Source: an uncultured bacterium
Lineage (GTDB): Bacteria > Chloroflexota > UBA5177 > JANWHV01
DNA: 64,000 bases
NCBI GenBank assembly: GCA_963729625.1
Contig: CAVSOU010000008.1
Coordinates: forward strand, 384,001 to 448,000
Reading direction: 5' to 3'
Shown: one piece after another, positions 10,322 through 32,471 of the stretch
Position numbering within the stretch: the first letter of the stretch is position 1
Layout of the letters: the number at the start of each line of letters is the position of its first letter
Notes under the pieces: model-generated
What the model was told of the DNA's origin: nothing
Database searches by the model: none
The model's input: the letters and a program-made list of their open reading frames with translations, nothing else
Translations under genes and position numbers: made by a program

Positions 10322-10332
10322 GGAGGGACGGC

Positions 10333-13286: not shown

Positions 13287-13606
13287 ACACGGACGCCAAC
13301 ACCGGCTGGCTCATCGACAAGGGCATCCAGGTCATTCATTGCCAGCAGCCAAGCAGCGACTTCCGCTTGCACGCACAGCCCACGGAGCAGGTCAGGGAGC
13401 AGGCTCAAGCGGGTATCATCGCGGAGGTTTCCCGGACCCTGCCATAAAGCAGTAGAGTAGTGGCATGTGTGGACAACCAGGCTGAAATGCCCGGCGCTAC
13501 ATCCGGCCACAGCCGGCCCCGGCCCTGCCATCCGCCGCAGCTGGAGGTCATATGCATGGGAAGTCGGGCCGGAGGCTCAATAGTTACCCTTACAGGGAGG
13601 CGCGCC

Positions 13607-16420
13607 GTGGCTGAATACCGCAAGAAGCTGATCGAGGTGGCGCTGCCGCTCGAAGCCATCAACGTTGCGTCGGCGCGCGAGAAGAGCATCCGGCATGGCC
13701 ACCCCTCCACGCTCCACCTCTGGTGGGCGCGCCGGCCGCTCGCCGCCTGTCGCGCCGTCCTGTTTGCCTCACTGGTTGATGACCCCAGCTCGCTTCCCGA
13801 GCAGTTTCCCACCCTCGAAGCGCAGGAAACAGAAAGGCAGCGCCTGTTCCGCATCATCGAGAAGCTGGTGTTGTGGGAGAACACCACCAACGAGGGGGTG
13901 CTGGACGAGGCGCGCGCCGAGATCATGCGATCGACTGGCGGCCATCCGCCCCCGGTGCTCGACCCCTTCTGCGGCGGCGGCTCCATTCCACTGGAGGCCC
14001 AGAGGCTGGGCCTGGAAGCGCACGCCAGCGACCTCAACCCGGTGGCCGTGCTGATTACCAAGGCGCTGATCGAGATCCCGCCGAAGTTCGCCAACATGCC
14101 GCCCGTGCATCCGGGCGAGCGCATGGCCCGGTCGTGGAAAGGCGCGCAGGGACTGGCTGAGGACGTCCGCTATTACGGCAAGTGGATGCGCGACGAGGCG
14201 TTCAAGCGTATCGGCCATCTTTACCCGAAGGCCCAGCTGCCCAAGGAGCACGGCGGGGGCGAGGCCACGGTGATCGCCTGGCTGTGGGCGCGCACCGTCA
14301 CCTGTCCAAATCCCGCGTGTGGTGCCAGGATGCCCCTAACACGTTCCTTTTGGCTTTCGACAAAGCCAGGCAATCGGGCGTTTATCGAGTATGCTGTCGA
14401 TCGCACCACGAAGGAAGTTGGGTTCAAGGTATTCATCGGGCAGGGAACCCCGCCCGATGGCACTCTGGATCGCCGTGGCGCGCGCTGCGTTGTCTGCGAC
14501 GCTCCAATTCCATTCGACGTTGTGCGGGCAGAAGGAAATGCTGGACGATTGGGCGCACAACTCATGGCGATCGCCGCTGAAGGAAATCGCGGGCGGATTT
14601 TTCTGTCGCCTACACCCGAGCATGAACTCGTGGCCAAGAACGCAACGCCCACTTGGAAGCCCGATTCTCAGTTGCCGGAACATGGGTTAGGTTTCCGGGT
14701 TCAACCATATGGACTGACAAGACACTCGGACCTCTTCACAGATCGCCAACTCGTAGCACTAACTACGTTCAGCGACCTTATCAGTGAGGCGCGTGGGAAG
14801 ATACTTTCTGACATGGCGACGTCTCACGATTTGGCAGGTCGAATCGCACCTGTAGCTGAAAGCGTCGATGGACCGACTGACTATGTTGACGCACTTTCGA
14901 CATACCTTGCGCTGTCGGTCAGCAAAGCAGCCGACCTGGCTTCGACACTTTGCCACTGGCAGCCGAATCCACAACACCTGAAGATTGCGCCAACTTTCTC
15001 TAGGCATGCGGTCCCAATGTCTTGGGATTACGCGGAGGGAAACCCGTTCAGCGGCTCATCTGGAAACTTCAGCAGGCAGTGGGAGTTGATAGCTGAACTC
15101 CTTGATGAGACTTATTCCGAGATCCCGTCCGTTGTCCAGCAACAGGATGCAATGACATACCGACAGGATGAACCCAAAGTATTGGTCTCGACAGATCCAC
15201 CTTACTATGACAACATCGGATACGCTGACCTTTCGGACTTCTTCTATATTTGGCTGCGTGCCGTGCTCGAGAGAACTCATCCAGCCTTGTTCACAACCTT
15301 GCTCGTCCCCAAGAGCAACGAGCTTATAGCTGATCAGCACCGACACGCCGGTAGGGCTGGGGCTCATCAGTTCTTCGAAAATGGACTGGCAACGGTGTTC
15401 AGCGGGCTCCGGCGGGTGCAGGATTCGAACGTCCCGATGACGGTCTTCTACGCATTCAGGCAGGTTGAAAATGATAACAATCTAGGCGAGTCGGGCGACG
15501 ATCAATTGGTCGTGGCATCTACCGGCTGGGAAACCATGCTGGAGGGTTTGCTCAGCGGCGGATTCACAGTTCTTGGTACATGGCCGATGCGCACCGAGCG
15601 CTCCGGCCGCCTGCGAGAGAACGGGAGCAACGCCTTAGCCTCCTCAATCGTGCTCGTCTGTCGTCCTCGGTCGGAGGCGGCAACCGTCGGGACACGCCGT
15701 GAGTTCCTTCAGACTCTAAAGCACGAACTGCCCGAGGCGCTGCGATTGATGCAACACGGCAATATCGCGCCGGTGGACCTGGCGCAAGCGGCCATCGGCC
15801 CCGGCATGGCAGTGTATTCGCGCTACTTGAAGGTGCTCGAGCCCGACGGCAGCCCCCTGCCCGTACGTGCCGCCCTTGCGCTGATCAACCAGACCCTCGA
15901 CGAGGTTCTGGCCGAGCAGGAAGGTGAGTTCGACGCCGATACGCGCTGGGCGCTGGCCTGGTTTCAGCAGTTCGGTGTTGACGAAGGACCCTACGGCACC
16001 GCGGAGACGCTCTCCACCGCCAAGAACACCAGCGTGGCCGGCATGGTGCAGGCCGGCATCGTCCAGGCTAGCGGCGGCAAGGTGCGATTGCTCAAGCGCG
16101 AGGAGCTATCAGCAGATTGGAATCCGGCGAACGATGCACGCCTCACGGTGTGGGAGACCTGCCAGCACCTGATCCGTACACTGCAGGATGAAGGCGAGCA
16201 GGCGGCTGCCGCGCTCCTGGCTGCATCAGGGCAGGCGGGCGAGAATGCCCGCGACCTTGCATACCGGCTCTACGTGATCTGCGAGCGGAAGGGCTGGGCC
16301 TCCGAGGCGCTTGCCTACAACAGCCTGGTGACGACATGGTCGGCGCTGGGCAGGACGGCGGCGCAAGCGGAGGAGCGGAAGCGCGCGCCGGTGCAGGGTA
16401 CTTTGCAAGGAATGGCCTAG
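13607..16420 (+). CDS. DUF1156 adenine-specific DNA methyltransferase of a restriction-like/BREX-related system
   Basis: KKLIEVALPL..HLWWARRPLAACRA, SAM motif DPFCGGGSIP, catalytic TDPPYYDNIGYADLSDFF; GTG start after GGGAGG. Confidence 0.95.
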   Translation: MAEYRKKLIEVALPLEAINVASAREKSIRHGHPSTLHLWWARRPLAACRAVLFASLVDDPSSLPEQFPTLEAQETERQRLFRIIEKLVLWENTTNEGVLDEARAEIMRSTGGHPPPVLDPFCGGGSIPLEAQRLGLEAHASDLNPVAVLITKALIEIPPKFANMPPVHPGERMARSWKGAQGLAEDVRYYGKWMRDEAFKRIGHLYPKAQLPKEHGGGEATVIAWLWARTVTCPNPACGARMPLTRSFWLSTKPGNRAFIEYAVDRTTKEVGFKVFIGQGTPPDGTLDRRGARCVVCDAPIPFDVVRAEGNAGRLGAQLMAIAAEGNRGRIFLSPTPEHELVAKNATPTWKPDSQLPEHGLGFRVQPYGLTRHSDLFTDRQLVALTTFSDLISEARGKILSDMATSHDLAGRIAPVAESVDGPTDYVDALSTYLALSVSKAADLASTLCHWQPNPQHLKIAPTFSRHAVPMSWDYAEGNPFSGSSGNFSRQWELIAELLDETYSEIPSVVQQQDAMTYRQDEPKVLVSTDPPYYDNIGYADLSDFFYIWLRAVLERTHPALFTTLLVPKSNELIADQHRHAGRAGAHQFFENGLATVFSGLRRVQDSNVPMTVFYAFRQVENDNNLGESGDDQLVVASTGWETMLEGLLSGGFTVLGTWPMRTERSGRLRENGSNALASSIVLVCRPRSEAATVGTRREFLQTLKHELPEALRLMQHGNIAPVDLAQAAIGPGMAVYSRYLKVLEPDGSPLPVRAALALINQTLDEVLAEQEGEFDADTRWALAWFQQFGVDEGPYGTAETLSTAKNTSVAGMVQAGIVQASGGKVRLLKREELSADWNPANDARLTVWETCQHLIRTLQDEGEQAAAALLAASGQAGENARDLAYRLYVICERKGWASEALAYNSLVTTWSALGRTAAQAEERKRAPVQGTLQGMA

Positions 16421-16471
16421 ACAAGCCTCGATAAACCTGTCCATCACGTTGTGGGTGTATGCCTAGTTTGA

Positions 16472-17644
16472 ATGCGTAGGGCGATGAATAGCGGAGTGCT
16501 GGCAGCACTCGTCGTGCGCGGCGACGGTCTATTCGCACGTGCCGGCGGACTTGACCCAATAGCGGATGGTTTGCAGGCGTATTGCGCCGACTGTGGTGTG
16601 GTCATGCTGCTCCTGGCTCGCGACTGGGGTGCCATGCCAGTGCTCTCACAGGCTCGCCTGTCTCGTCCGCACGAGATCCTGCAAGTTTCGAGCACAGCCG
16701 ATTCTGCGCGTCGACTTCAGGAGCGCCTCAGCACGATGGGAGTGCCCCTCTCGCACGTTGTGTATATCGGCTACGGTGTGCACGACGCCGACGATGCCCG
16801 GCACCTACGTGTTCCCTATCTGTCAGCCGCATGGGCGGGCAAGAGTCCGGGATCGGGAGTGCAGTTGGATAGCGCCGACCACCTGACCGAGTATTTGCGA
16901 ACCTTCCTTGCAAAGCAGCGTCTGTGGCTTCAAGAAAACGCTGTAGCTGGCAGCTGCGGCCTTGCTGACTTTGCGTGGCTGAGCGTAGCCGCTGAAAGTG
17001 AAGGATCGCGGGCTTTTCGGTTGGCGTTCTTCTGCGAGCACTTGTTCACGAGTCTTGCGCTTAGTGACCTTGGGCGTTGGGCAGACGTATGGACGGTCGA
17101 CGGCGACTCTGACGGATCTGATCGACTGCTGAAGTTGGCACGCGCCCGAAGCTGCCTGTTTGGTGCGCCTGTGGTGCGACTGCCTCTGACATCACACTTG
17201 CCAGAAGGCCGCTCGCTCGCCGGCAAGAAGGCATTGCTGCTGCAGTATTGCCCTAGTCGACATGACCAGGACGTTGCCACAGCCGAATTGACTCACTCGG
17301 GTGCGACTTCTGTTCGTTGTGCGAGTCTGTTCACGACACGAGACGACAACTCCCAGCTCGACTTTGACGCCGATTGTGCTCGGTATGCTGATGAAATGCT
17401 CGCTGCGGCGGACCGGTTCGTCCAGCGTTACACTGAGCGACGGCGTAGACGTCAAGGTACGGCTGAGGAAAGAGCATGGGAGTCAGATGACGCAGACGGT
17501 GAGCATTGGATGGCGCACTGGAGCGACGCCAACCGCCATGAGACGAGATTTGGAGACAAGCGTCTCGGATGGCTAGCGCATGAGGGGGGTGCCTTTGGCT
17601 CTGTCTCGCTCTACGATGACTACAGTGACGAAGGCGAGGCATAG
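16472..17644 (+). CDS. Hypothetical protein; degenerate HAD-like plus phosphoribosyltransferase-like fusion
   Basis: VVYIGYGVHDADDAR..AAW resembles HAD motif IV; LAGKKALLL....SGATSV resembles a PRTase core lacking DD. Confidence 0.45.
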   Translation: MRRAMNSGVLAALVVRGDGLFARAGGLDPIADGLQAYCADCGVVMLLLARDWGAMPVLSQARLSRPHEILQVSSTADSARRLQERLSTMGVPLSHVVYIGYGVHDADDARHLRVPYLSAAWAGKSPGSGVQLDSADHLTEYLRTFLAKQRLWLQENAVAGSCGLADFAWLSVAAESEGSRAFRLAFFCEHLFTSLALSDLGRWADVWTVDGDSDGSDRLLKLARARSCLFGAPVVRLPLTSHLPEGRSLAGKKALLLQYCPSRHDQDVATAELTHSGATSVRCASLFTTRDDNSQLDFDADCARYADEMLAAADRFVQRYTERRRRRQGTAEERAWESDDADGEHWMAHWSDANRHETRFGDKRLGWLAHEGGAFGSVSLYDDYSDEGEA

Positions 17645-17715
17645 TCCAAGCATGGCAGCTCGAGGCTGGAGGGGGGTTCCCTCGCAACACCGCATTCAAA
17701 GTGGACTGCAAGTAG

Positions 17716-17979
17716 ATGACTGTAACCGCCGATATGGTTCGGGATGCATACGAGGCAGATCGCCTTGCCAGACATACAGGGACCCGGAGGATGTCGGTTC
17801 CGCAGTTCCTCAAGTTGACGAAGTCCGGTGCAGCCCTCATTGATGCACTCGCTCAATTCGAGAGAGGTCGCCTGGTGCTCCGGACTTATCAGCTCATGAG
17901 AACTTCAGCCGAGGGTGTCGGCGCCGAAGCGAGATCTGCGAATGAAGGGTGTGTCTGGGCCAATCTGGTCCGTCAATGA
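17716..17979 (+). CDS. Small hypothetical protein (cassette cargo)
   Basis: 87-aa ATG ORF co-oriented with upstream cargo; no recognised motif. Confidence 0.35.
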   Translation: MTVTADMVRDAYEADRLARHTGTRRMSVPQFLKLTKSGAALIDALAQFERGRLVLRTYQLMRTSAEGVGAEARSANEGCVWANLVRQ

Positions 17980-18180
17980 GTACCTAACCGAATCGCCGTG
18001 GACTACAACGGCGGTTGGACTTCGACCATACGATGACGCCGATGAGCCTGGCTAGGCCCATGCTACCGTGTAGACAAAGCGTCCCACTTCCGGCTTCTGC
18101 CTTTGGGTATAGAGTCTAGTGCGGAAAGCAGCGAAACTGCGCAGATTAGCGACAAACATGCCGCCATGAAGGGTTGATGC

Positions 18181-18262
18181 ATGGCTACCTAAAACTATGA
18201 ACGTGTCGGCCGAACCCTTGAAGTCCTGAAGGACGCGCTCCGCCCATATATCAAGCGCGAGC
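18181..18262 (+). pseudogene. Relic copy of the 5' start of the DUF499 gene
   Basis: MAT*NYERVGRTLEVLKDALRPYIKRE vs MATSNYERVGRTLELLKDALRPYIERE at 25510; premature TAA. Confidence 0.9.
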
Positions 18263-18268
18263 GTCCCG

Positions 18269-18397
18269 ACCGCGCGGCACATCGATAGTGACACACCAGC
18301 TTCTTGTTCAGGACTGAGATGCCAAACGCTACCAGGAGCGCGACATCCGCAACGCGCTACGCCGAATCCAAGAGGCCGGTCAAGGGACGGGCGCAAA
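18269..18397 (+). repeat. 129-bp direct repeat, copy A (copy B at 20774-20902)
   Basis: Identical except one A/G difference. Confidence 0.95.
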
Positions 18398-18851
18398 GAT
18401 CCCTGGCCCTCCTGGTCGCGCTCCTGGCCGGCGCAGAGTCCGATGCGAACCGTGGGCGCAGTCTCATCCTGCTGGAGGAGCTGGAGACTGCGCTGCACCC
18501 AGGGGCCACGAGAGTGCTGCTGGATGCGATGTCCGAGGCCAGCGAACACTCGCAAGTAGTAGTCACGACGCACAGCCCGGACCTTCTCGACCAGAAAGAC
18601 ATCCCCGAAGATTCCGTCCTCGCGGTCGAAGCCGAGGAGGGAGTCGCGAGGATCGGCCCGATCGATGAGGTGGGACGTTCGGCCATTCGCGACCGCCTGT
18701 TCACAGCCGGCGACCTCTTGCGAACCGCGGGCCTGCACCCCACTGGCGCCGAGGCAGGCGGAGCCAGCCTAGATGGGCGAATGGGCCAGGCCAGTGTGCA
18801 TTGCCTGCATCGTCGAGGGCGCTGGCGAGGCAGAGGCAGTCCCGGAGCTCG
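18397..18851 (+). pseudogene. Duplicated fragment of ABC ATPase 3' end plus DUF4276 5' start (copy of 22027-22489)
   Basis: Near-identical sequence with scattered SNPs and an 8-bp deletion (GAGGCGCC). Confidence 0.93.
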
Positions 18852-19079
18852 CTCAGCGCCGGCGGGCTGGTGGCGGCGCCGGGTGAGCAACCTGCACTGT
18901 AGGGTGACCCCCAGGCCGCGCGGCAGAAGCGACTGACCGCGGTGCTGCAGGCACACGCGCAGCGGCATGGAAAGACGGCCTTCCACCACTGGCAGGTCGA
19001 CCCGCTGGCGGACGATGAATGGCAACAGGAGGATGGCATCGCATGACTCGGCGTCTGCGCCGAAAGCAGCCTGGTCGAG

Positions 19080-20186
19080 TTAATACGGCGTTGCTGAGGG
19101 AATCACTGTCGGATATGCAAGGGAAGTGGGTGATGGAGCAAAGGTAGGCACGGCGGTCGGCGAGGCAATCACTGTCGGATATGCAAGGGAAGTGGGTGAC
19201 GGAGCAAAGGTAGGCACGGCGGTCGGCGAGGCAGTCGCGGTCGATGGGGCAGCGAGGACCGGAGTCGCGATCAATGCGGCAGTGGAGTTCGGCAACTTCA
19301 ACACCCACCGCACCCGAGCCTGCACATCCACTGTTTTCGGCGAGGTGGGCGGCAAGTCCCCGACCACAGTCGTTTGCATCCCGGCGGGCACGAGGACAGA
19401 GTACTTCCCGTTGGTGACAAGCATTAATCCCTCGATGACTGTGACCACCACGGTGCGGGAGCGCTGGGCATAGCGAATGTCGAAGCGCGTGCCCTTGGTT
19501 GCGGCCACGGCAGTACCAGCCTGCACTGTATGGCTCACTGCGCCGTGAACGACTGCCCAAAAAAGGTCGCCACCGCTCATCGAAGAATGCAGGGGGTCCC
19601 GAATCTGCACATCGCTGTTGCTGTTGAGGTCGATCAGAGTCCCATCACGCAAGCCGATAGAGGCCAGCTGGCCCTGAGCCGTGAATGCATGATAATCCTG
19701 AAACAGATCGCTGCCTACGGTTCCGCTGCGCCCCGGCGCGTTCGGCGGCAGAATAGTGATACCGTGCACGAGGGAAACGACACTGGCCGGCGGACCAGGC
19801 ACGATCGGGATACTCAATGAGGCCGGCGGGAATCCAGGGGATGCGGCCTGCACCTCCGCCTTGCCCAGCGTCGTGGCATGGACAGTCAGTGCGATGGTGC
19901 CATGCGCTGCCATGCCGCCGACCGTCGTACCGGTGCCGACGACATGTACTTGCGCCGGTACCAGCTCACCTGCTGAGCTGCGCACGGTTACAGTCAGCAC
20001 CACGTCGCGGCCGACGTTGATCTGCGCAGGTGTCACGGCAATACGCAGCGTGGCGGCGGCCTTTGCGGGCGGCGGAGTCGATGCAGCGAGAAACAGGATG
20101 ACTGCGAGAGAGAGCAGGCGGCCGACGATATGCACGATCACTCCTGTCCATGGGTGGGCGTTGGCGCAAGCATGAATGCACGTCAC
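19080..20186 (-). CDS. Secreted FecR-domain protein with Ig-like N-terminus and Pro/Thr tail
   Basis: Signal peptide; IGLRDGTLIDLNSNS, AVAATKGTRF, VTVIEG FecR motifs. Confidence 0.75.
   Translation of the reverse strand: MTCIHACANAHPWTGVIVHIVGRLLSLAVILFLAASTPPPAKAAATLRIAVTPAQINVGRDVVLTVTVRSSAGELVPAQVHVVGTGTTVGGMAAHGTIALTVHATTLGKAEVQAASPGFPPASLSIPIVPGPPASVVSLVHGITILPPNAPGRSGTVGSDLFQDYHAFTAQGQLASIGLRDGTLIDLNSNSDVQIRDPLHSSMSGGDLFWAVVHGAVSHTVQAGTAVAATKGTRFDIRYAQRSRTVVVTVIEGLMLVTNGKYSVLVPAGMQTTVVGDLPPTSPKTVDVQARVRWVLKLPNSTAALIATPVLAAPSTATASPTAVPTFAPSPTSLAYPTVIASPTAVPTFAPSPTSLAYPTVIPSATPY
19101..19232 (-). repeat. 66-bp tandem repeat x2 (22-aa Pro/Thr linker)
   Basis: SPTAVPTFAPSPTSLAYPTVI repeated. 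Confidence 0.9.
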
Positions 20187-20465
20187 GCTACAGCAGCCTG
20201 ATCATGGCGTCAAGTGGCAGCGCCTGAAAGGAGAGCACCTATAACTCGGGGGTGTTGTCCTATCTTCGCGCGACGTCACGCGTAGCCGCTGACACAGTTG
20301 CGTGTTTGGTCACAGCGCCGAAGTCCTGTTTCCGGATTTGCCCGGGAACGGAACCAAGACGGCCGCGCGCAACCGCTTATGCTCTTGCACGGTTATCACC
20401 TGATGTCCCGGCAAGAGCCGACCAAGTCGGCGCGGCAAGCACTCGTCGAGTACAATGCGCACGGA

Positions 20466-20729
20466 TCAGCGGCGACCAGTGACCCTGGTCTGCGGCGGCA
20501 CGTGGTGGGATTGTTGACGCGCAAGTGATTCCACGGTGTCATCAGCTATGTGAATAACCGCAGCGGCGCTCTCCGCTGAGACCCTGGGGAAATCTTCGAG
20601 AAATTCCGCCAGTGGCTGCCCCGCGGCGAGATAGTCGAAGAGATTGCGCACGGGTACCCGAGTACCGGAAAAACATACTTCGCCGTCAAGACGCTCGGGG
20701 TCGCTGTCAATTATGGTTGAGATGTCCAT
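20466..20729 (-). CDS. DUF433-family protein (orphan antitoxin-like)
   Basis: IDSDPERLDGEVCFSGTRVPVRNLFDYL..G..L.EFLEDFP.VS. Confidence 0.88.
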   Translation of the reverse strand: MDISTIIDSDPERLDGEVCFSGTRVPVRNLFDYLAAGQPLAEFLEDFPRVSAESAAAVIHIADDTVESLARQQSHHVPPQTRVTGRR

Positions 20730-20773
20730 CTGTCCTGTCTCTCCCTATGCCGTGCAGGGTTCTATTCCAAGAT

Positions 20774-20902
20774 ACCGCGCGGCACATCGATAGTGACACA
20801 CCAGCTTCTTGTTCGGGACTGAGATGCCAAACGCTACCAGGAGCGCGACATCCGCAACGCGCTACGCCGAATCCAAGAGGCCGGTCAAGGGACGGGCGCA
20901 AA
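20774..20902 (+). repeat. 129-bp direct repeat, copy B
   Basis: Matches 18269-18397. Confidence 0.95.
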
Positions 20903-20936
20903 CCCACCACCTTCAACAGCGCGAGACGGGCAGGCT

Positions 20937-21092
20937 AGACTCCACGCGATCCGTGAGCGGAAGGGCTGGGCCTCCGAGGTGCCGGCGTGCAACAGCGTGG
21001 TCACGACGTGGCCGGCGCTCGGCAGGGCGGCGGCGCAGGCGGAGGAGCGGAAGCAGGCGCCGGTGCAAGGGACGTTTGTAGGGATGGGGTAA
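20937..21092 (+). pseudogene. Relic copy of the 3' end of the DUF1156 methylase
   Basis: RLHAIRERKGWASEVPACNSVVTTWPALGRAAAQAEERKQAPVQGTFVGMG* vs RLYVICERKGWASEALAYNSLVTTWSALGRTAAQAEERKRAPVQGTLQGMA* (16265-16420); same length. Confidence 0.93.
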
Positions 21093-21156
21093 GACTCGGA
21101 CGAATAGTCCGCATCATATTTCCTGATATCGGGCTTGCGGAGTCTGGGGTGTTACA

Positions 21157-22410
21157 ATGCCGTCAAAAGCGTCGCAAGAACCGGAGGATCTCAAGATGGC
21201 GCCGGCTAAGCAGATCACGCGCCTCGTGCTCGAAAACTACAAGAGCATTGCCGGATGCGACGTGCGGCTGCAGGCGCTTACGCTCCTGGTCGGACGGAAC
21301 GGCGCCGGGAAGTCCAACTTCCTCGATAGCCTCCGGTTTGTGAACGACGTGCTCTTGAGCGGATTTCAGCAGCCGATAGCCGAGCGTGGTGGAATCGAAG
21401 AGCTGATGTGCCACGCCCCGGGCATGCTGCGAACTGGGCTGAGGCGTGAGTTGGCCGTCGGACTGGAAATGCGGTTAGGCGACAAGACCGACGTGCAGTT
21501 CTCCTTCAAGTTGGTGTCTCGCTCACCGGGCAGCTACGTACTTGACCGGGAAGAGTGCACGATCGACGAGCACAGGGACGGGCATCTGCCGGTCCACTAC
21601 CGCAACGAGATGGGTAAGGTCGACACGAACGTCACCCTTGCAGCAGGCCTCCGGCTGCTTCCAGATCGGCTGTACCTACAGGGTGCGGCTGGGCTGGACC
21701 AGTTTCAGTCTGTCTACGACGCGCTGACTCACGCGCGCTCCTACCGCGTGGATCCCGCTGCTATGCGCATCCCTCGCACATTCGCTGCAAGCAATGAGCT
21801 AGCAACCGATGCTTCGAATATTGCGAGTGTTCTGTGGCAGTTACAGCAAACAGATCGCCTGCTACTGGATCGCATCGAGAGATATCTGGAAGCCATCGTG
21901 CCGGGTCTGCACAGCATCGAGATCAAACAGATAGGCTCATTTCTTATACCTCACTTCCGCACAGCGACCGACGACGGAAGAAGAACCACAGAGTTCCCGA
22001 TCGCCAGTATGTCTGACGGTACTCTCAGATCCCTGGCCCTCCTGGTCGCGCTCCTGGCCGGCGTAGAGTCCGATGCGAACCGCGGGCGCAGTCTCATCCT
22101 GCTCGAGGAGCCGGAGACCGCATTACACCCAGGCGCTACCAGAGTGCTGCTGGATGCGATGTCTGAGGCCAGCGAACACTCGCAAGTAGTAGTCACGACG
22201 CACAGCCCGGACCTTCTCGACCAGAAAGACATCCCCGGAGATTCCGTCCTCGCGGTCGAAGCCGAGGAGGGAGTCACGAGGATCGGCCCGATCGACGAGG
22301 TAGGACGTTCGGCCATGCGCGACCGGCTGTTCACAGCTGGCGAGCTCTTGCGAACCGCGGGCCTGCACCCCACTGGCGCCGAGGCGCCGAGGCAGGCGGA
22401 GCCAGCCTAG
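21157..22410 (+). CDS. ABC-type ATPase (AAA_21/AAA_15 family, defence-associated)
   Basis: LENYKSI, Walker A GRNGAGKSN, signature MSDGT, Walker B LLEEPE..LHP, VTTHSP. Confidence 0.92.
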   Translation: MPSKASQEPEDLKMAPAKQITRLVLENYKSIAGCDVRLQALTLLVGRNGAGKSNFLDSLRFVNDVLLSGFQQPIAERGGIEELMCHAPGMLRTGLRRELAVGLEMRLGDKTDVQFSFKLVSRSPGSYVLDREECTIDEHRDGHLPVHYRNEMGKVDTNVTLAAGLRLLPDRLYLQGAAGLDQFQSVYDALTHARSYRVDPAAMRIPRTFAASNELATDASNIASVLWQLQQTDRLLLDRIERYLEAIVPGLHSIEIKQIGSFLIPHFRTATDDGRRTTEFPIASMSDGTLRSLALLVALLAGVESDANRGRSLILLEEPETALHPGATRVLLDAMSEASEHSQVVVTTHSPDLLDQKDIPGDSVLAVEAEEGVTRIGPIDEVGRSAMRDRLFTAGELLRTAGLHPTGAEAPRQAEPA

Positions 22411-23028
22411 ATGAGCGAATGGGCCAGGCCTGTGTGCATTGCCTGCATCGTTGAGGGCGCTGGCGAGGCAGAGGCAGTCCCGGAGCTCGTGCGCCGAATC
22501 GCGCACCATCTGGAGCCGCCGGTTACGGTGGACCCCGTCCTGTCCCAACGCATCTCCAGGAGCAGACTGGCCGGAAAGCCTCCATACCTGGAGAGGGCAA
22601 TCGAATTCGCTGCACGCAGGGCCGGGAGCGGCGGAGCAATTCTGTTGGTTCTGGATGCAGACGACGACTGTCCTAAGACTCTTGCGCCATCACTGCTCGA
22701 GCGGGCACGCGCCGTGAGAGGCGATATGCGGGTAGCGGTAGTGCTGGCCAAGTGCGAGTACGAAGCCTGGTTCCTTGCCGCCGCCTCCTCCTTGCGCGGG
22801 CAGCATGGGCTGGCAGCAGATCTGGTGCCGCCTGCTGAGCCCGAGGCCGTCAGGGACGCAAAGGGCTGGCTTACCAGACACATGCCGATCGGGGCTCCAT
22901 ACAAGGAAACGCTCCATCAGCTGCAGCTCACTCGATACTTCGATCTGGCGCTAGCGCGATCGGCCGGCTCGTTTGACAAGCTCTGGCGAGATATCCAGGT
23001 ATTGGTCGGCGCTGTAAACCAGAGCTGA
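22411..23028 (+). CDS. DUF4276-like TOPRIM-fold protein (putative nuclease partner)
   Basis: IVEGAGE, LVLDADDDCP, EYEAWFLA, SFDKL; abuts the ATPase stop. Confidence 0.8.
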   Translation: MSEWARPVCIACIVEGAGEAEAVPELVRRIAHHLEPPVTVDPVLSQRISRSRLAGKPPYLERAIEFAARRAGSGGAILLVLDADDDCPKTLAPSLLERARAVRGDMRVAVVLAKCEYEAWFLAAASSLRGQHGLAADLVPPAEPEAVRDAKGWLTRHMPIGAPYKETLHQLQLTRYFDLALARSAGSFDKLWRDIQVLVGAVNQS

Positions 23029-23066
23029 TGTTCGACTTCCGGACCCAGCTGTCGGATGTAGAGTAG

Positions 23067-23179
23067 ATGGCGACACCGCATTTCTTCCCGGGCCGTGCAG
23101 CGACCGTCAGCAGCAAGGGTGATTCATGTGGCTACTGAAGGATGCGCTTCGCCCTCATATCGAGCGCGAGCATGTGGCG
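23067..23179 (+). pseudogene. Second relic of the DUF499 5' start
   Basis: ATGGCGACA (MAT) followed by LLKDALRPHIEREH vs LLKDALRPYIEREY. Confidence 0.8.
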
Positions 23180-23282
23180 CGGTTGCCGACGAACCGGCCA
23201 GGCGGCAGTACCGTTGAGACAAGCACCGGGCTGCATGACCGTACTCAGCACAAATGTCTGCCGATCCTTGGCTTTTCGTGTA

Positions 23283-23350
23283 GGCAGGACGGCGGCGCAG
23301 GCGGAGGGGCGGAAGCGGGCGCCGGCGCAGGGCACGATGGCGGAGTTGGG
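23283..23350 (+). pseudogene. Second relic of the DUF1156 3' end
   Basis: GRTAAQAEGRKRAPAQGTM vs GRTAAQAEERKRAPVQGTL. Confidence 0.88.
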
Positions 23351-23399
23351 ATCGCCGCTGCTGGAGGTCTGGCTTCTAACCGGCTTATTACACCCCAGA

Positions 23400-23445
23400 T
23401 TGACACCTTACGGTTACAAGCATAGCATGTAACCGTAAGGTGTCA
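23400..23445 (+). promoter_or_regulatory. hipBA promoter within an 18-bp perfect inverted-repeat operator
   Basis: TTGACA-17bp-TAGCAT; arms TGACACCTTACGGTTACA (23401-23418) and TGTAACCGTAAGGTGTCA (23428-23445). Confidence 0.85.
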
Positions 23446-23456
23446 GGGGAGATCGC

Positions 23457-23738
23457 ATGAGGATCGGGTCCATACGAGACATGGCGGCGGCTATGCGAGG
23501 CCGTCGCACGGACCTCGGGCTGAGCCAGGCAGCGTTGGCTCGACGCGCGCGCGTTTCTCGCAAGTGGATCAGTGAATTTGAAGCAGGCAAACCGACTGCC
23601 GAGCTTGGCCTGGTGATTCGCGTGTTGGATGAGCTTGGCATTGTGCTCGACTTGAACAGCGGCGAAGAGGCAGCGCCGTCCGGGGCTGCGAAGCGGGTGG
23701 ATCTCGATGCTCTCCTCGATGAGCAGCGCGTCAGATGA
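23457..23738 (+). CDS. hipB: HipB-like XRE HTH antitoxin
   Basis: RRTDLGLSQAALARRARVSRKWISEFEAGKPTAEL; ATGA overlap with hipA. Confidence 0.88.
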   Translation: MRIGSIRDMAAAMRGRRTDLGLSQAALARRARVSRKWISEFEAGKPTAELGLVIRVLDELGIVLDLNSGEEAAPSGAAKRVDLDALLDEQRVR

Positions 23739-25015
23739 CCGATTCGCTCATCGTGGTCCTCGACAACGCTATCGCCGGCGTACTGACCCGCCTGTCTGGA
23801 GGCAAGCTTCGCTTCGACTACCACGACGACTATCGTGGCCGACCGAGCTCTACGCCTCTCTCGATCTCCATGCCGGTCCAGGTGCGCTCCCATCCCGACC
23901 GCGTTGTCACCCCATGGCTGTGGGGTCTGCTCCCCGACAACGAAGCGGTACTCGCACGCTGGGCGCGACAATTCCAGGCCTCGGCATCGTCCCCATTCTC
24001 ATTGCTGGCCACTCCCATCGGACATGACTGTGCGGGGGCAGTACGTTTCGTCACGCCGGATGCCGTCGACCAGCTGGCGGACCGGCCCGGCGACGTCACC
24101 TGGCTCACGGAGGATGAGGTAGCACAGCGCCTGCGGGAGCTGCGAGAGGACGGCACGACCTGGTTGGGTCGCTCGTACACGGGACAATTCAGCCTGGCGG
24201 GCGCGCAGGCCAAGACCGCGCTCTTATTGCAAAATGGCCGCTGGGGAGAACCCTCCGGCCGCACTGCAACCAGTCACATTCTCAAGCCTGCCGTGGCCGG
24301 TCTCGACGACCATGACCTCAATGAGCACATCTGCCTTGATGCAGCGCATAGGGCCGGCCTTCTCGTGGTTCGGACGCATGTCGCGCGTTTCGGCGAAGAG
24401 ACGGCAATCGTCGTGGACCGTTACGACCGGCGGGGCCTCGACGGCGGCGTGATCCGCATTCATCAAGAAGACCTCTGCCAGGCACTTGGCATTCTTCCAT
24501 CGCGCAAGTATCAAAACGAAGGCGGCCCTGGGCCGATGGATATAGCGAGAGTCTTTCGTCAGGCCATGCCGTACCGCGCCGCCGTCGACGCGGTCTGGCG
24601 ATTCGTCGAGGCGCTCGCCTGGAACTGGCTGATTGCCGGCACGGATGCGCACGCAAAGAACTATTCACTGCTCTTGGCCGCCGACCAGATTCGTCTGGCT
24701 CCCCTCTATGACATCGCATCTGCTCTTCCCTATGGCATGCACGAGAAGAAGCTTCGGTTCGCGATGAAGATAGGGGGCGATTACCGCGTATTCCCGCATC
24801 GCAATACGTGGAGAGAAGCTGCACTCGAGCTCGATATCGATGCCGACGAGACAGTCGCGCGGGTCGAGACCCTTGCGGCGCGCGCACCGGATGCCTTCGC
24901 GGCCGCGGCCTCATCCCACGACATCGTCTCTCTGAAGCGTGACTTGCCTGGACGGCTGGTCGACCTCGTCGCTGCCCGTGCCGCTCGATGTGTTCAACTT
25001 CTTCGCGCGACTTGA
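23735..25015 (+). CDS. hipA: HipA-family Ser/Thr kinase toxin
   Basis: GLLPDN, DCAGAV, SLAGAQAK, RIHQEDLCQALG, GTDAHAKNYS, LAPLYDI. Confidence 0.95.
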   Translation: MTDSLIVVLDNAIAGVLTRLSGGKLRFDYHDDYRGRPSSTPLSISMPVQVRSHPDRVVTPWLWGLLPDNEAVLARWARQFQASASSPFSLLATPIGHDCAGAVRFVTPDAVDQLADRPGDVTWLTEDEVAQRLRELREDGTTWLGRSYTGQFSLAGAQAKTALLLQNGRWGEPSGRTATSHILKPAVAGLDDHDLNEHICLDAAHRAGLLVVRTHVARFGEETAIVVDRYDRRGLDGGVIRIHQEDLCQALGILPSRKYQNEGGPGPMDIARVFRQAMPYRAAVDAVWRFVEALAWNWLIAGTDAHAKNYSLLLAADQIRLAPLYDIASALPYGMHEKKLRFAMKIGGDYRVFPHRNTWREAALELDIDADETVARVETLAARAPDAFAAAASSHDIVSLKRDLPGRLVDLVAARAARCVQLLRAT

Positions 25016-25029
25016 ATGGTGCATCCGGC

Positions 25030-25345
25030 AAGTTCGCCGGACCTTGAAGCGCCCGTGTGTGTCGTTTCACCGCGCCGCTGCTGCCACGATATACTCGATT
25101 ACCGCGGCGCCTTTCACGCCGCGCTATCCGAATGGGGTAGCAATTCCGGTGGGCGAAGCCGGCCGGACCCGAGCCGGCGTCATCCTCTGCCACCAGGTCC
25201 GTACGATCTCGCTTGCGCGTAGAGGCAACTCACTCACCCCGATCGGTTATCTCACCGATCCGGATCTGCGGAACAAGGTGCGTGGCGCACTGGCACGGCA
25301 GCTGGGGCTCGACATCCCGTCAAGCGCTGACGGCGCAACGGGGCG
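25030..25345 (+). pseudogene. PemK/MazF-family toxin remnant lacking its N-terminus
   Basis: P.GV.IP.GEAG...GVILCHQVRTISL.R....IGYL....L..V..AL..LGL. Confidence 0.7.
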
Positions 25346-25509
25346 CCGCGTCTTCGAGATCCGCAGGGTGTCTACCCGTTGCCTGTGGTTCCGGCTTGCC
25401 GGTCCGTTCGCAGGCTACCTGCCCTACTCGTTGGGTGTAGAGTATAAGGCGATAACAGAACGCTTCTCACGCCGCAGACCGGCGCCGCGCACGAAAGGCG
25501 GAGGGTGAA

Positions 25510-28500
25510 TTGGCTACATCGAACTACGAACGTGTTGGCCGAACGCTCGAGTTGCTGAAGGACGCGCTCCGCCCCTACATCGAGCGCGAGTACGAGGCGA
25601 AGTACGGGCCGAGCTGGATGGGGCAAGCCGCGCAGGTGCTGCGCAACGATCGCAGCCTGACGGTCGAGGAGGGCCAGCCGCATCTGGACGTGCAGGCGCT
25701 CCTCAACCTGATGACCTACCAGTGGAACGAGGTGTTCGCCGGTACGCTCGGCCAGGCGGAGCGCAGCCTGGCCTTCGAGCTGCGCGACATCCGCAATCGC
25801 TGGGCGCACCAGCACGCGTTCAGCAGCGACGACACCTACCGCGCGATGGATACCGCGCACCGCCTGCTCACGGCGATCTCCGCACCCGATGAAGCGCGTG
25901 AAGTGGACCGGCAACGCCAGGAGATCCTGCGCGTCCGTTTCGCCGAGCAGGAGCGCAGCGAGGTGCGCCGCGTGACCAGGCAGACCACCGAAGGCACGCC
26001 GCTAGCCGGACTGAAGCCCTGGCGCGAAGTGATCACGCCGCATCGCGACGTGGCCAGCGGCCGCTACCAGCAGGCGGAATTCGCCGCCGACCTCGGCCAG
26101 GTCTATCGCGACGAGGGATCGGACGAGTACCGGGACCCGCGTGAATTCTTCCGGCGTACCTACGTGACCGAGGGCCTGCACCACCTGCTGACCGGCGCCC
26201 TGCTACGGCTGACCGGCGCCGGCGGAGACCCGGTGATCGAGCTGCAGACGAACTTCGGCGGCGGCAAGACTCACTCCATGCTGGCGCTGTTTCACCTGTT
26301 CTCCGGCACGCCCGCCGGCGATCTGGCCGGTATCGAGGCGGTTCTGCGCGAGACCGGCGGATTTCAACCGCCAAAGGCGCGGCGAGCCGTGCTCGTGGGC
26401 ACCGCGCTCTCGCCGTCCCAGCCGCACACCACGCCGGAAGGCCTGACCGTTCGCACGCTGTGGGGCGAGCTGGCCTATCAGCTGCTCGGCGTCGAAGGCT
26501 ACGCATTGGTCGCCGCAGCCGACGCCGAGAGCGTGAGCCCCGGATCCGACGCCCTGCGCGAGCTGTTCAGCAAAGCCGCGCCCTGCCTGATCTTGATCGA
26601 CGAGTGGGTGGCCTATGTCCGCCAGCTCTATCACGTGCAACATCTGCCGGCCGGCTCTTTCGAGGCCAATCTTACGTTCGCTCAGGCGTTGACCGAAGCG
26701 GCGAAGGCGGCGCCCAAGACACTCGTGGTGGCCAGTATTCCGGCGTCAAACATCGAGATCGGCGGCGAAGGCGGGCAGGCGGCCCTCGAGCGCATCAAGA
26801 ACACTTTTGGGCGCGTGGAATCGGCGTGGCGGCCTGCGACCGCGGAGGAGGGCTTCGAGATCGTGCGCCGCCGCCTCTTCCAGCCGATCGACGATCCGGC
26901 GCGTTTCGCGGCGCGCGACGCGGTGGTGAGCGCGTTTGCCAACCTCTACCGCGACCAGGCGCAGGAGTTTCCGGTTGCGGCGCGCGAGGGCGCCTATCGC
27001 CGCCGCCTGGAAGCGGCCTACCCCATCCATCCCGAGCTGTTCGACCGCCTGTACAACGACTGGTCCGCGCTCGACAAGTTCCAGCGCACCCGCGGCGTGC
27101 TGCGCCTGATGGCGGCGGTGATCCACGAGCTATGGGAGCGGCAGGATGGCAGCCTGTTGATCATGCCGGGTAATCTGCCGATCGACGCCCAGCCGGTGCA
27201 ACGCGAGCTGACCCATTATCTGGACGACAACTGGCTGCCGGTAATCGAGAAGGATGTCGACGGGCCGCACTCGCTGCCGCTGACGATCGATCGCGAGAAC
27301 ACCAATCTCGGCCGCTACTCCGCCTGCCGCCGCGTGGCACGCACCCTGTTCATGGGCTCAGCGCCCACTCTTCGAGGCGCCAACAAGGGGCTCGACGACC
27401 GCAGCATCAAGCTCGGCTGTGCCCAGCCCGGCGAGGCGGTGCCCACGTTTGGCGACGCGCTGCGCCGGTTGACCGACGCGGCGACCTTCCTCTTCGTCGA
27501 CGGCACACGCTACTGGCTCTCTACCCAGCCGAGCGTGAACCGTCTGGCGCAGGACCGCGCGGCCCAGCAGCCGATCGACAGGGTATGGCTGGAATTGCGC
27601 ACGCGACTGAAGGCGAACAAAGACGAGCGCGGCCTCTTCGCGGCAGTGCACCCAACGCCGGCCGGCAGTCTCGACATACCGGACGAGCCGGCTGCGCGCC
27701 TGGTGATCCTCGATCCCGAGAAGGTTCACAGTTTGCGCGCCACTGATAGCGATGCGTTGAAGACCGCGGCGAACTGGCTCGACCACCACGGAAACGGCGC
27801 CCGCAACTTCCGCAACATGGTGGTCTTCCTGGCACCCGACAAGGCGCGGCGAGATGACCTCGAAGTGGCGGTTCGCCAGTACCTGGCCTGGCAGTCCATC
27901 GCTTCCGAGAGCCAGACGCTGAATCTCGATCCCTTTTCACTCGGCCAGGCCCAGACCAGGCTCAGGGAAGCGAACGGCGCCGTCGACGCGCGCATCAAGG
28001 AGACCTACTTCTGGCTGCTGGCGCCCGCACAGCCCGACCCGCTCGGCCCGGTCGAGTGGCTGGAGCTGCGGCTGCAGGGCCAGGAAGCGCTGGCCGTGCG
28101 GGCCGGGAACAAGCTGAAGAACGAGGGACTGCTGATCGTCGAGCTCGGCGGCGTGCCGCTGCGCATGGAGCTGGACAAATACCTCTGGCGTGACAGGGAT
28201 TATCTGTCGATCAAGCAGCTGTGGGACTATTTCGCTCGCTACATCTACCTGTCTCGGCTCAAGGACCAACAGGTGCTGCTTGGCGCGATCAAGCAGGGTG
28301 TCGGTACCCTGGCCGGCGATACCTTTGCCTATGCCCAGAGCTTTGACGGAGCGACCGGACGGTACCTGGGACTGGCGACCAATCAAATCGTGAGTCCTAT
28401 CCTGGATGGTTCCAGCGTGATCGTCAAGCCCGCTGCCGCACAGCGCCAGATCGACGCCGACGGGGCAGCCGAGCAGGCGAAGAAGGCGCGACAGCCGGAG

Positions 28501-28851
28501 CCTGGGGGCAGCTACGGTGTGCCCACGGAGCCACCGCAGCCTGCCAACGGCGTGCGGGAGTCCGGCGCCGCCCTGGCCGAACGTCCCGCGGCAGCGCCGG
28601 CCGAGCGCGCACGGACGCCGCGCCGCTACCACGGCAGCGTGGAGACCGGGTCGCAGCGATTGGGCGTGTTCGCCGGGAACATCGCCAACGAGATCGTGCA
28701 GCACCTCGCGTTGCTGCCAGGCGCTGAGGTGACGATCACGATCGAGATCCAAGCGACCGTGCCGGACGGCGTGCCCGACAACGTGGTGCGCACCGTGGCC
28801 GAGAACAGCCGGACGCTGCACTTCAGCTCCAGCAGCTTCGAGGAAGAGTAA
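25510..28851 (+). CDS. Swt1-like HEPN plus DUF499 AAA+ ATPase (BrxC-related)
   Basis: HEPN RNRWAH; LKPWREVITPH.DV..EFAADL; Walker A TNFGGGKTHS; LILIDEW; FQRTRGVLR; TTG start after GGAGG. Confidence 0.95.
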   Translation: MATSNYERVGRTLELLKDALRPYIEREYEAKYGPSWMGQAAQVLRNDRSLTVEEGQPHLDVQALLNLMTYQWNEVFAGTLGQAERSLAFELRDIRNRWAHQHAFSSDDTYRAMDTAHRLLTAISAPDEAREVDRQRQEILRVRFAEQERSEVRRVTRQTTEGTPLAGLKPWREVITPHRDVASGRYQQAEFAADLGQVYRDEGSDEYRDPREFFRRTYVTEGLHHLLTGALLRLTGAGGDPVIELQTNFGGGKTHSMLALFHLFSGTPAGDLAGIEAVLRETGGFQPPKARRAVLVGTALSPSQPHTTPEGLTVRTLWGELAYQLLGVEGYALVAAADAESVSPGSDALRELFSKAAPCLILIDEWVAYVRQLYHVQHLPAGSFEANLTFAQALTEAAKAAPKTLVVASIPASNIEIGGEGGQAALERIKNTFGRVESAWRPATAEEGFEIVRRRLFQPIDDPARFAARDAVVSAFANLYRDQAQEFPVAAREGAYRRRLEAAYPIHPELFDRLYNDWSALDKFQRTRGVLRLMAAVIHELWERQDGSLLIMPGNLPIDAQPVQRELTHYLDDNWLPVIEKDVDGPHSLPLTIDRENTNLGRYSACRRVARTLFMGSAPTLRGANKGLDDRSIKLGCAQPGEAVPTFGDALRRLTDAATFLFVDGTRYWLSTQPSVNRLAQDRAAQQPIDRVWLELRTRLKANKDERGLFAAVHPTPAGSLDIPDEPAARLVILDPEKVHSLRATDSDALKTAANWLDHHGNGARNFRNMVVFLAPDKARRDDLEVAVRQYLAWQSIASESQTLNLDPFSLGQAQTRLREANGAVDARIKETYFWLLAPAQPDPLGPVEWLELRLQGQEALAVRAGNKLKNEGLLIVELGGVPLRMELDKYLWRDRDYLSIKQLWDYFARYIYLSRLKDQQVLLGAIKQGVGTLAGDTFAYAQSFDGATGRYLGLATNQIVSPILDGSSVIVKPAAAQRQIDADGAAEQAKKARQPEPGGSYGVPTEPPQPANGVRESGAALAERPAAAPAERARTPRRYHGSVETGSQRLGVFAGNIANEIVQHLALLPGAEVTITIEIQATVPDGVPDNVVRTVAENSRTLHFSSSSFEEE

Positions 28852-32381: not shown

Positions 32382-32390
32382 TCAGACCTG

Positions 32391-32452: not shown

Positions 32453-32471
32453 GGTCCGGCGGAGGGTGCCT

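Follow-up and report, generated by a model that had tools for sequence, protein, structure and literature searches.

Layered cargo between copies of the bordering gene ends in the hmaB-hmaC gap of an Hma defence system from an uncultured Chloroflexota bacterium

Introduction

How can the gap between two genes of a defence operon fill with cargo, layer upon layer, when no gene for an integrase, a transposase or a recombinase is detectable in it? The question is raised by a stretch of 64,000 nucleotides (nt) from the genome assembly GCA_963729625.1 of an uncultured Chloroflexota bacterium (contig CAVSOU010000008.1, positions 384,001 to 448,000), hereafter the window, to which all coordinates refer. 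It holds what, judging by domain content and gene order, is predicted to be an Hma (helicase, methylase, ATPase) anti-phage system, also called a Type-1 DUF499-centred BREX-related system, and the gap between its hmaB and hmaC genes, hereafter the slot, spans 9093 nt. Our answer, to which we assign a probability of about 0.6, is that this Hma system remained intact while its hmaB|hmaC gap, a known hotspot, grew layer by layer to 9.1 kilobases (kb), and that the copies of gene ends lying within the gap are scars of general recombination rather than sites of a specialized enzyme.

Cargo in the Hma gap is already published and is not new. Embedded genes were counted in 931 of 1,485 Hma systems (62.7%), the commonest cargo being named HEC, 'Hma-embedded candidate' (Payne et al., 2024, bioRxiv 10.1101/2024.01.29.577857), and insertions in 66.5% of hma loci, with an AAA_21 ATPase pair occupying the hmaB|hmaC gap of every Halomonas locus (Liu et al., 2024, PMC11232893). 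The two surveys admitted no more than three embedded genes per gap and left pseudogenes out. What is new here is the size of the slot, its scar-separated layers, a second, truncated HEC-01 allele together with stray chromosomal fragments, a variant joined scar to scar, and relics of the same kind in two unrelated loci (L056 and L069).

The ends of both bordering genes recur within the slot

The slot is bordered upstream by hmaB (13460-16420, plus strand), which encodes a DUF1156 adenine methyltransferase (PADLOC HmaB, PDLC00660, 1159.1 bits; Pfam DUF1156, 2.4e-31) and of which the final 179 nt (16242-16420) are the part copied in the relics. The downstream border is hmaC (25510-28851, plus strand), with a Swt1-like HEPN domain and a DUF499 ATPase (PADLOC PDLC00662, 1072.8 bits; Pfam HEPN_Swt1 and DUF499). 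An earlier note, made from the letters of this DNA without database searches, had claimed that the methylase end and the DUF499 start each occur three times on one strand and alternate, and had named a self-comparison as a check. A blastn comparison of 12000-34000 with itself confirms these repeats, and a repeat search and tblastn agree: there are three copies of the hmaB 3' end and three of the hmaC 5' start, all on the plus strand, in the strictly alternating order B (real), C, B, C, B, C (real). By blastn, the real hmaB end matches 20940-21084 with 84.1% identity over 145 nt (16268-16411; E 1.4e-38) and 23283-23335 with 90.6% over 53 nt (16349-16401; E 3.8e-14), and the real hmaC start matches 18182-18261 with 83.8% over 80 nt (25511-25590; E 6e-18) and 23135-23179 with 82.2% over 45 nt (25555-25599; E 5e-6). 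A control scan for relics on reversed slot sequences gave 0 matches.

Taken from left to right, hmaC-start relic 1 (18167-18262, plus strand) comprises 14 nt 5' of the start codon and codons 1-27, with TAA at codon 4 and 85% amino acid (aa) identity by tblastn; its upstream ATG...ATG layout is like that of the congeners G003 and G004 and unlike that of the resident hmaC. The hmaB-end relic 2 (20913-21091, plus strand) consists of about the last 59 codons including the stop and is recognized by an HmaB C-terminal profile (E 1.1e-11); the existence of this relic had been noticed correctly, although its span had been given as 20937-21092, and the left edge is now set at 20913 by the profile, which was built from 64 HmaB C-termini. 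For hmaC-start relic 2 (23115-23182, plus strand), the secure part is 23135-23182, with 86.5% identity over 37 nt to relic 1; in an alignment read by eye, 23115-23134 is a 20-nt match to the ribosome-binding and start region, with about 38 nt gone before 23135, and a start at 23067, as previously proposed, finds no support. The hmaB-end relic 3 (23283-23350, plus strand) retains the last 22 codons, has lost the stop codon and is 88.9% identical to relic 2. A direct abutment of this relic on hmaC relic 2 was considered and rejected, as the intervening 100 nt do not align. All these arms are short, at 45-180 nt, and decayed, and the two hmaC relics stop within 11 nt of one another, at +81 and +92.

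Could the copies simply have arisen in place? A purely local scenario would have the gene ends duplicated by slippage or unequal crossing-over and then decaying, with cargo arriving through illegitimate recombination into a tolerant 'genomic sink', an idea that is the published default; the arms would then carry no information about donors. This scenario draws strength from the fact that the nearest known allele of each relic is the resident gene: the relics are 84-91% identical to it and 78-79% identical to the G003 gene, the resident and G003 genes being 83% identical, so that the check named in the earlier note, whether a relic is closer to a donor allele, finds no such case among the known alleles. 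Arm-less capture, moreover, appears to have occurred in this very slot, as seen in the hipBA module and the stray imuB, FecR-like and DUF433 pieces described below. The distances themselves nevertheless tell against it. Relic and resident differ by about 16%, and the resident and G003 genes by about 17%; with distances so comparable, the relic alleles must have split at about the time when the species did, and the scars are no recent local copies. Relics that have diverged as far as species have would be expected in congeners, yet the slots of G003 and G004 are free of them and contain other cargo. The upstream layout of relic 1, which is of the G003/G004 type and not the resident one, is equally awkward for an origin in place, and a strict alternation of B and C ends bracketing cargo is unexpected from random duplication.

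Two alleles of one embedded pair

More light on this question comes from the cargo. The layer that the earlier note had described as an ABC ATPase plus a TOPRIM-like gene is identified by PADLOC and Pfam as an intact HEC-01 (Hma-embedded candidate 1) at 21157-23028 on the plus strand, consisting of the ABC ATPase HEC-01A (21157-22410; 406.7 bits, 6-390 of 399; AAA_21) and its DUF4276 partner HEC-01B (22411-23028; 230.4 bits, 3-193 of 197; DUF4276). An adjacent ABC ATPase and DUF4276/TOPRIM-type partner located inside the hmaB|hmaC gap is what characterizes HEC-01, and the assignment as a predicted HEC-01 is accordingly firm. A truncated second HEC-01 allele lies at 18397-18856, also on the plus strand, and retains the 3' third of HEC-01A together with codons 1-28 of HEC-01B, with 93% identity to 22027-22489 (95% and 89% aa identity, respectively, to the intact copy by tblastn). 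Of 348 nt compared between the HEC-01A copies, 20 are different, 15 of them at third codon positions (P 1.7e-4), an excess which implies that both copies evolved as working genes before one of them was cut. The two were thus separate working alleles that entered the slot and not the products of a fresh local duplication, and alleles that diverged under purifying selection are not what a purely local origin of the locus would lead one to expect.

The left edge of the truncated HEC-01 copy is formed by a 129-nt sequence, element X, that directly follows hmaC relic 1 (copy 1, 18269-18397, plus strand) and recurs 10 nt upstream of hmaB relic 2 (copy 2, 20774-20902, plus strand), the two copies being identical at 128 of 129 positions. 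Element X was found nowhere else in the genome, nor in 40 relatives. The idea that X is diverged hmaB was examined and rejected: tblastn stretches the hmaB alignment across X, whereas with the profile built on 64 C-termini the alignment does not begin until 20913.

From where might such alleles have come? Of 401 genomes of the phylum, 11 have a match to HEC-01A at E<=1e-30, counting G000, and the top non-self identity is 44%; in metagenome contigs, 62 pattern matches to HEC-01A included 0 relatives. A degenerate pattern for the end of hmaB (ERKGWASE) retrieved 14 loci from metagenome contigs, whose full-length Hma proteins are 40-67% identical to those of the window, and the top metagenome match to hmaB relic 2 is 81% identical over 63 nt.

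A natural variant joined from scar to scar

The most direct evidence on what the scars do is provided by metagenome assemblies. A contig of run X3, from a soil metagenome of another study, reads 18106-18225 and continues at 23135-23222, with 8 letters common to both sides at the joint and 4909 nt skipped (contig of 208 nt, depth 2.7). The joint falls within both hmaC-start relics, that is, from scar 1 to scar 2, and is a natural case of the arm-to-arm joining that had been predicted from the sequence of the window. Compared with the window, the left part of the contig has 11 differences in 120 nt (91%) and the right part 2 in 88 (97.7%); the hmaB end of the same run likewise stands at 91% (13 differences in 151), and other X3 contigs across 23222-24730, the hipBA region, have 1-10 differences each, for an identity of 97.5-99.7%. 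The jump of identity from 91% to about 98% at the joint means that a recently shared tract starts exactly inside the hmaC-start scar: the scars have been used as crossover points. At codon 4, the X3 scar has TCA (M-A-S-S-N) where the window has TAA and, having also no counterpart of the gap in relic 2, it is the less decayed copy. Whether the block was gained by the lineage of the window or lost in that of X3, the difference between them is the same reaction between the same repeats. A shared tract that begins within a scar is a further difficulty for the purely local scenario, which, on all the evidence taken together, we regard as quite unlikely.

It might be argued that the slot is a construct of the assembler, which would have concatenated strains with different cargo in the same slot, a danger to which the earlier note had itself drawn attention. 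The assembly, in 21 contigs, is 87% complete and 5% contaminated, and the congeners do differ in slot cargo. Yet the junction 18262/18269 is contained, with 0 differences, in a 181-nt contig of run X1, which is possibly the source sample, and run X3 supplies contigs over 23135-23617; the joints that can be checked are no assembly artefacts. There is no cover at the joints between 20726 and 22452, nor at 23055-23134; in a 30-bin depth table, five bins have no cover in runs X1-X4 (17296-17619, 20860-21183, 21508-22155, which is two bins, and 25072-25395), and among the contig pieces listed the stretches without cover are wider than those five bins, a lack that weighs in neither direction. Arms that are merely 84% alike, furthermore, would not merge, and the truncated hmaC::X joints occur in no single-cargo strain, so that concatenation cannot make them. 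A chimera is therefore hardly credible.

How the layers may have formed

If the scars are genuine, by what route could cargo be added and not exchanged? We propose that DNA from another Hma locus would enter the cell, that a first crossover would take place in the long homologous body of hmaC, and that the second joint would form within the recipient hmaC, a few dozen codons from its start, where the homology is short or imperfect. The donor would thus bring a new, complete hmaC start, and the old start would remain as a stump behind the resident cargo; a donor fragment reaching into hmaB would also place a stump of the donor hmaB end ahead of the new cargo. The result would be addition, not replacement, and the scars found between the layers indeed bear out the earlier proposal that cargo accumulated here in place of being replaced. 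The stumps could then serve as homology themselves, with whole blocks gained or lost between them, and a cassette lying between a stump and hmaC would be movable to a related locus by a plain double crossover. Such an order of events, with one long and one short arm, would explain the stump of the old start, the stump of the donor hmaB, the wholeness of the core genes and the varied stump lengths (27-31, 64 and 78 codons). What the sequences themselves display is the anatomy of the slot, the lack of a recombinase in it, a single natural variant with a stump-to-stump joint and stumps of this kind in two unrelated loci; the direction and order of events and the use of one long and one short arm belong to the proposed model.

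The ingredients of this mechanism are familiar. In homology-facilitated illegitimate recombination, one long homologous anchor combined with a short or illegitimate joint adds foreign DNA, and in 'minimal mobile elements' conserved flanking genes act as arms for the exchange of cassettes without mobility genes. The known cases come from laboratory transformation and single-cassette replacement, and we know of no account of a defence operon in which cassettes are stacked and the stumps of the arms are kept.

Is the locus alone in this? Our survey set consisted of 98 sequences: besides the window, it took in 80 loci from genomes, 3 from congeners and 14 from metagenomes. The hmaB end lies upstream of the hmaC start in 67 of the 98, and the gap ranges from -33 to 3412 nt in the 66 other than the window. 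The scan for relics took in 36 slots of at least 200 nt. In L056 the order is hmaB, an MNT+HEPN pair, a 78-codon hmaC-start relic with 87% identity to the hmaC of that locus, MNT and hmaC; in L069 a fragment of hmaC codons 39-64 stands between hmaB and HEC-01AB, which is followed by hmaC; L059 gives a weak match to an hmaC-start relic, and L013 and L120 have a whole second hmaB in tandem. Stumps of the hmaC start thus recur in unrelated lineages, although they are uncommon, and nowhere are they as elaborate as in the window. As an aside on L056, its lone MNT-type nucleotidyltransferase gene (10303-10860) is located directly upstream of hmaC, the full MNT+HEPN pair being one layer further upstream, and this lone MNT might pair with the Swt1-like HEPN domain at the N-terminus of HmaC.

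The tandem hmaB genes bring up another way of producing the same joints. Suppose that Hma loci came to lie in tandem, for example through a single crossover of a circular molecule, and that the redundant core was then deleted: the loss would begin at about codon 30 in the upstream copy of hmaC, take in hmaA and reach as far as the last 60 codons in the downstream copy of hmaB, and both cargos would be kept; two or three such rounds would yield the observed stack. A single deletion gives an hmaC-start::hmaB-end joint at one stroke, the B-C-A gene order of the genus fits, and tandem hmaB pairs do exist, in the two loci just mentioned. The price is a larger number of steps per round. Also, neither X nor the 100-nt spacer found at the joints consists of hmaB sequence, the hmaC-start relics of L056 and L069 come without an hmaB-end relic, and no locus with two full hmaC-hmaA sets is present among the 98 sequences. 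We consider this route unlikely.

Several observations weigh against growth by recombination between allelic loci, and they should be stated together. The 80 genome loci, the 14 metagenome loci and the congeners yielded no donor allele that is nearer to a relic than the resident gene is. The key variant is represented by the one short contig described above. Among the slots scanned, relics of the hmaB end occur only in the window, and 37 hmaA|hmaB slots have no relic arms, the only finds there being a whole extra hmaB in L120, a 15-aa match by the real start in L033 and a weak minus-strand match in L054. The joints are not clean hmaC::hmaB fusions: about 100 nt between hmaC relic 2 and hmaB relic 3 are unassignable, and hmaC relic 1 is followed by X, which the HmaB C-terminal profile does not detect as hmaB. 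The X copies, with 99% identity, are far more alike than the adjoining HEC-01A copies with 94% (P 0.004), so that an extra event such as gene conversion is needed. Third codon positions account for 10 of 15, 5 of 10, 13 of 25 and 7 of 16 of the differences between relics and resident genes, a bias that is only moderate and at most suggestive, and some of which an old local duplicate beside an evolving resident gene would give as well. Lastly, hipBA probably entered an older mazEF layer without arms, as it sits among ordinary chromosomal genes, outside the Hma slot, in G003 and G004, and the imuB, FecR-like and DUF433 fragments, too, probably arrived without arms.

These considerations bear on the source of the cargo. 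That the cassettes came from the same slot of related islands, as originally suggested, is borne out by the scars at least for the HEC-01 layer and for the arrivals with hmaB relic 3, whose DNA had lain between an hmaB and an hmaC; it finds no support for hipBA, given its position outside Hma in the congeners. Nor is it supported for the 390-aa open reading frame (ORF) at the left of the slot, of which no other slot had a copy, or for the imuB fragment, the FecR-like ORF and the DUF433 gene, which are devoid of arms.

A more general proposal, decidedly tentative and in our estimate likelier to fail than to hold, is that Hma cargo, and perhaps that of BREX and type I restriction-modification (R-M) hotspots, carries portable stumps of its bordering genes along with it and so constitutes a recombinase-free, self-stacking cassette system. 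A cassette with an hmaC-start stump on its left and hmaC on its right would, by an ordinary double crossover, land just inside the hmaC of any related locus and would for this reason add to the resident cargo, and blocks could drop out in the same manner. If true, this would explain how defence systems become embedded.

No dedicated machinery in the slot

Might an enzyme nonetheless be at work? The earlier claim that the slot has neither an integrase nor attC sites is upheld by domain scans, Rfam and the analysis of inverted repeats. No integrase, transposase or recombinase domain is present in any of the 52 slot ORFs of at least 70 aa. Outside the slot, the window has 46 ORFs that reach 230 aa, and a scan of 45 of them, all but the one at 8087-9010, likewise gave no such domain; Rfam gave 0 matches in the slot. 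No recurrent hairpins or attC-like sites were seen in the slot, where, in a search that used no dedicated attC model, there are 5 short inverted repeats, the only strong one being the hipB operator. An unrecognized cassette system, an analogue of the integron in which X or the gene-end copies would be sites for a recombinase encoded elsewhere and the cassettes would be circular, could invoke the hmaC relic ends that coincide to within 11 nt and the position of X, with a single difference in its whole length, at the left edge of both HEC-01 copies. There is, however, no recombinase among the slot and window ORFs scanned, no conserved hairpin and no RNA family; X is absent from the rest of the genome and from 40 relatives; and the end points of relics vary elsewhere (codon 78 in L056, codons 39-64 in L069). 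We hold such a system to be very improbable. The gain and loss of cargo in this locus are most simply explained by general recombination.

Chromosomal integrons, with which the array had been compared, are stacks that run in one direction from a fixed locus and consist of small accessory cassettes, with toxin-antitoxin and defence genes making up many of these. In the slot scans, neither an IntI gene by the array nor attC hairpins at every border were found; in contrast to integrons, the locus has no intI, attI or attC, it includes minus-strand and broken genes, and its borders are irregular. With arms that are short and decayed, several pieces without arms and no donor allele, the description as an integron-like array was an overstatement.

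A closer parallel is insertion with long target duplication, in which an R-M unit of less than 20 kb without a mobility gene is flanked by direct repeats of more than 30 bp that align to a single copy in the empty site (Furuta, Abe and Kobayashi, 2010, PMC2853133). Here, the block 18226-23134 (4909 nt) lies between the hmaC-start relics (37 nt, 86.5%), contains no mobility genes and in this respect is such a unit, and the 208-nt X3 contig of depth 2.7, a metagenome contig of a related strain, has one hybrid copy of the repeat. In contrast to the published cases, the repeats here are far from near-identical, being 37-45 nt in length and 82-86% alike; they derive from a bordering defence gene and recur as a stack, and the candidate empty site is a metagenome contig, not a genome.

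The locus resembles the embedded Hma systems of the two surveys in having the same three core genes, cargo between hma genes and HEC-01 as cargo (Payne et al., 2024; Liu et al., 2024), and cargo of the toxin-antitoxin type is found likewise in the slots of G003 and G004. It differs in that the gap is 9.1 kb long, is multi-layered and bears scars of the bordering genes; the surveys give no mechanism. Payne et al. use 'recombination', 'remnant' and 'truncated' 0 times, and Liu et al. have a single instance of 'recombin', which stands in a figure legend, and none of 'pseudogene' or 'remnant'; the text of Rakesh and Krishnan (2026) has 'homologous recombination' and 'pseudogen' 0 times. In the literature on defence hotspots we found no description of stumps of bordering genes between embedded cassettes, although one may still exist. 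According to the two surveys, most Hma loci carry foreign defence genes, and one of them reports the like for loci of BREX, DISARM and type I R-M systems, with the route left open save for the 'genomic sink'. The present locus preserves the joints themselves, in the form of stumps, two alleles of one cassette and a stump-to-stump variant, and these speak for general recombination, with allelic Hma loci as the partners. Should other loci bear out the pattern, it would offer a testable rule for the stacking and shuffling of defence repertoires without genes of mobile elements, and surveys that drop pseudogene fragments would be throwing away the evidence.

Other contents of the slot

The slot had been divided into three tidy units, each with a methylase end, cargo and a DUF499 start. 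This scheme leaves 18263-20912 unexplained, a segment holding element X, the truncated HEC-01 copy, an imuB 3' end and, on the minus strand, a FecR-like ORF and a PIN/DUF5615 stub beside a DUF433 gene, and what is seen is a layered deposit of whole and broken modules. Three modules are whole (the 390-aa and 87-aa ORFs, the HEC-01 pair and hipBA), and at least five pieces are broken (the second HEC-01 allele, the imuB 3' end, the PIN stub by DUF433, a 5'-truncated mazF and element X).

The first cargo layer (16472-17979, plus strand) consists of the orphan 390-aa ORF (16472-17644) and an 87-aa ORF (17716-17979), with no match in Pfam, NCBIfam or PADLOC. Among 1.84 billion proteins, the 390-aa ORF has 7 matches at E<=1e-3, the top non-self match being 32% identical; it is present in 0 of 400 other genomes of the phylum, and a word-index search returned only itself. 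The HAD/PRTase-like label first given to it is plausible but unproven: sub-threshold HAD/PRTase matches appear in 3 of 6 distant relatives, and an atlas score of 0.88 points in the same direction, while the single-sequence AlphaFold2 (AF2) model is poor (predicted local distance difference test score, pLDDT, 37.3). The ORF is nearly an orphan.

To the right of the truncated HEC-01 allele, an imuB-like fragment (18857-19059, plus strand) comprises the 3' end of a Y-family polymerase gene and the first bases of the next gene. It is 83% identical over 210 nt to a sequence of the congener G001 (L104 7745-7954), where the ORF has the Pfam domain IMS and adjoins a RecA-like gene, and by this resemblance the piece is assigned as a stray chromosomal fragment. 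When a 9.7-kb slot query was compared with the genome from which it comes (87% complete), the imuB fragment was matched only in the slot, and G001 has a full imuA/imuB-like pair. The FecR-domain ORF (19080-20186, minus strand; 368 aa; Pfam FecR 2.3e-9) follows; its 3' end contains a tandem duplication of 66 nt in exact register (19096-19227, repeat family D8), the copies of which are 97% identical, and paralogues with 67-71% identity are encoded on other contigs of the genome. The minus-strand segment 20310-20729 carries a DUF433 gene (20466-20729; Pfam 6.6e-16) and a 50-aa PIN/DUF5615 stub (20310-20462), whose PIN_10 and DUF5615 matches are below their cut-offs; together they look like a broken toxin-antitoxin-like pair.

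The hipBA module (23377-25015, plus strand) consists of an operator palindrome (23401-23445) with arms of 21 nt that are 95% complementary, hipB (23457-23738) and hipA (23735-25015), the two genes overlapping by 4 nt. With an HTH antitoxin gene (HTH_31, 5.4e-9) overlapping a HipA kinase gene (Couple_hipA, 1.1e-21; HipA_C, 2.9e-47), it is classified on domain evidence as a type II toxin-antitoxin module; its nucleotide identity to G003 is 83% over 23377-25009. The mazF relic recognized by the earlier note is confirmed at 25035-25359 on the plus strand: it lacks about 30 N-terminal codons and the antitoxin, both of which are present with the full-length homologue in G001, and is 70% identical at the aa level to residues 31-137 of that MazF, its PemK match in Pfam being below the cut-off. 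The reading frame to which this relic belongs (24939-25508) is open for 189 codons, overlaps the end of hipA by 77 nt and has its stop 1 nt before the hmaC start codon.

Of the congeners, G004 has a Fic-like ORF and a Gp49/HTH pair in its slot. In the gap of G003 (L100 1003-3280), a Gp49-type toxin and its HTH partner are accompanied by an IS200-like Y1 transposase gene, and several frames read a repeated 'HPALAGG' peptide, which suggests repetitive extragenic palindrome (REP)-like repeats.

The host system and its surroundings

PADLOC detects an intact Hma system in the gene order hmaB-hmaC-hmaA on the plus strand, with all three ORFs open. The third gene, hmaA (28851-32381, plus strand), encodes an SNF2 helicase with a C-terminus of the NOV_C nuclease type (PDLC00659, 1736.8 bits, 1-1167 of the 1176 model positions; Pfam SNF2-rel_dom, Helicase_C and NOV_C). 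The neighbours of the system in the window are housekeeping genes, such as those for ClpX, trigger factor, PPK, Rho and CysS, and there is one tRNA-Leu gene 9 kb away. The order hmaB-hmaC-hmaA is found in the window and in G003, and hmaA is upstream of hmaB in most of the 80 genome loci (L001-L080). By tblastx, the window at 32300-40000 and the G003 locus at 10147-14000 (L100) have no genes in common downstream of hmaA, and the whole Hma locus may occupy differing chromosomal sites within the genus. The middle of hmaB (14400-15400) has a G+C content of 53-56%, compared with 63-69% across the remaining hma genes, and may be a swapped target-recognition region.

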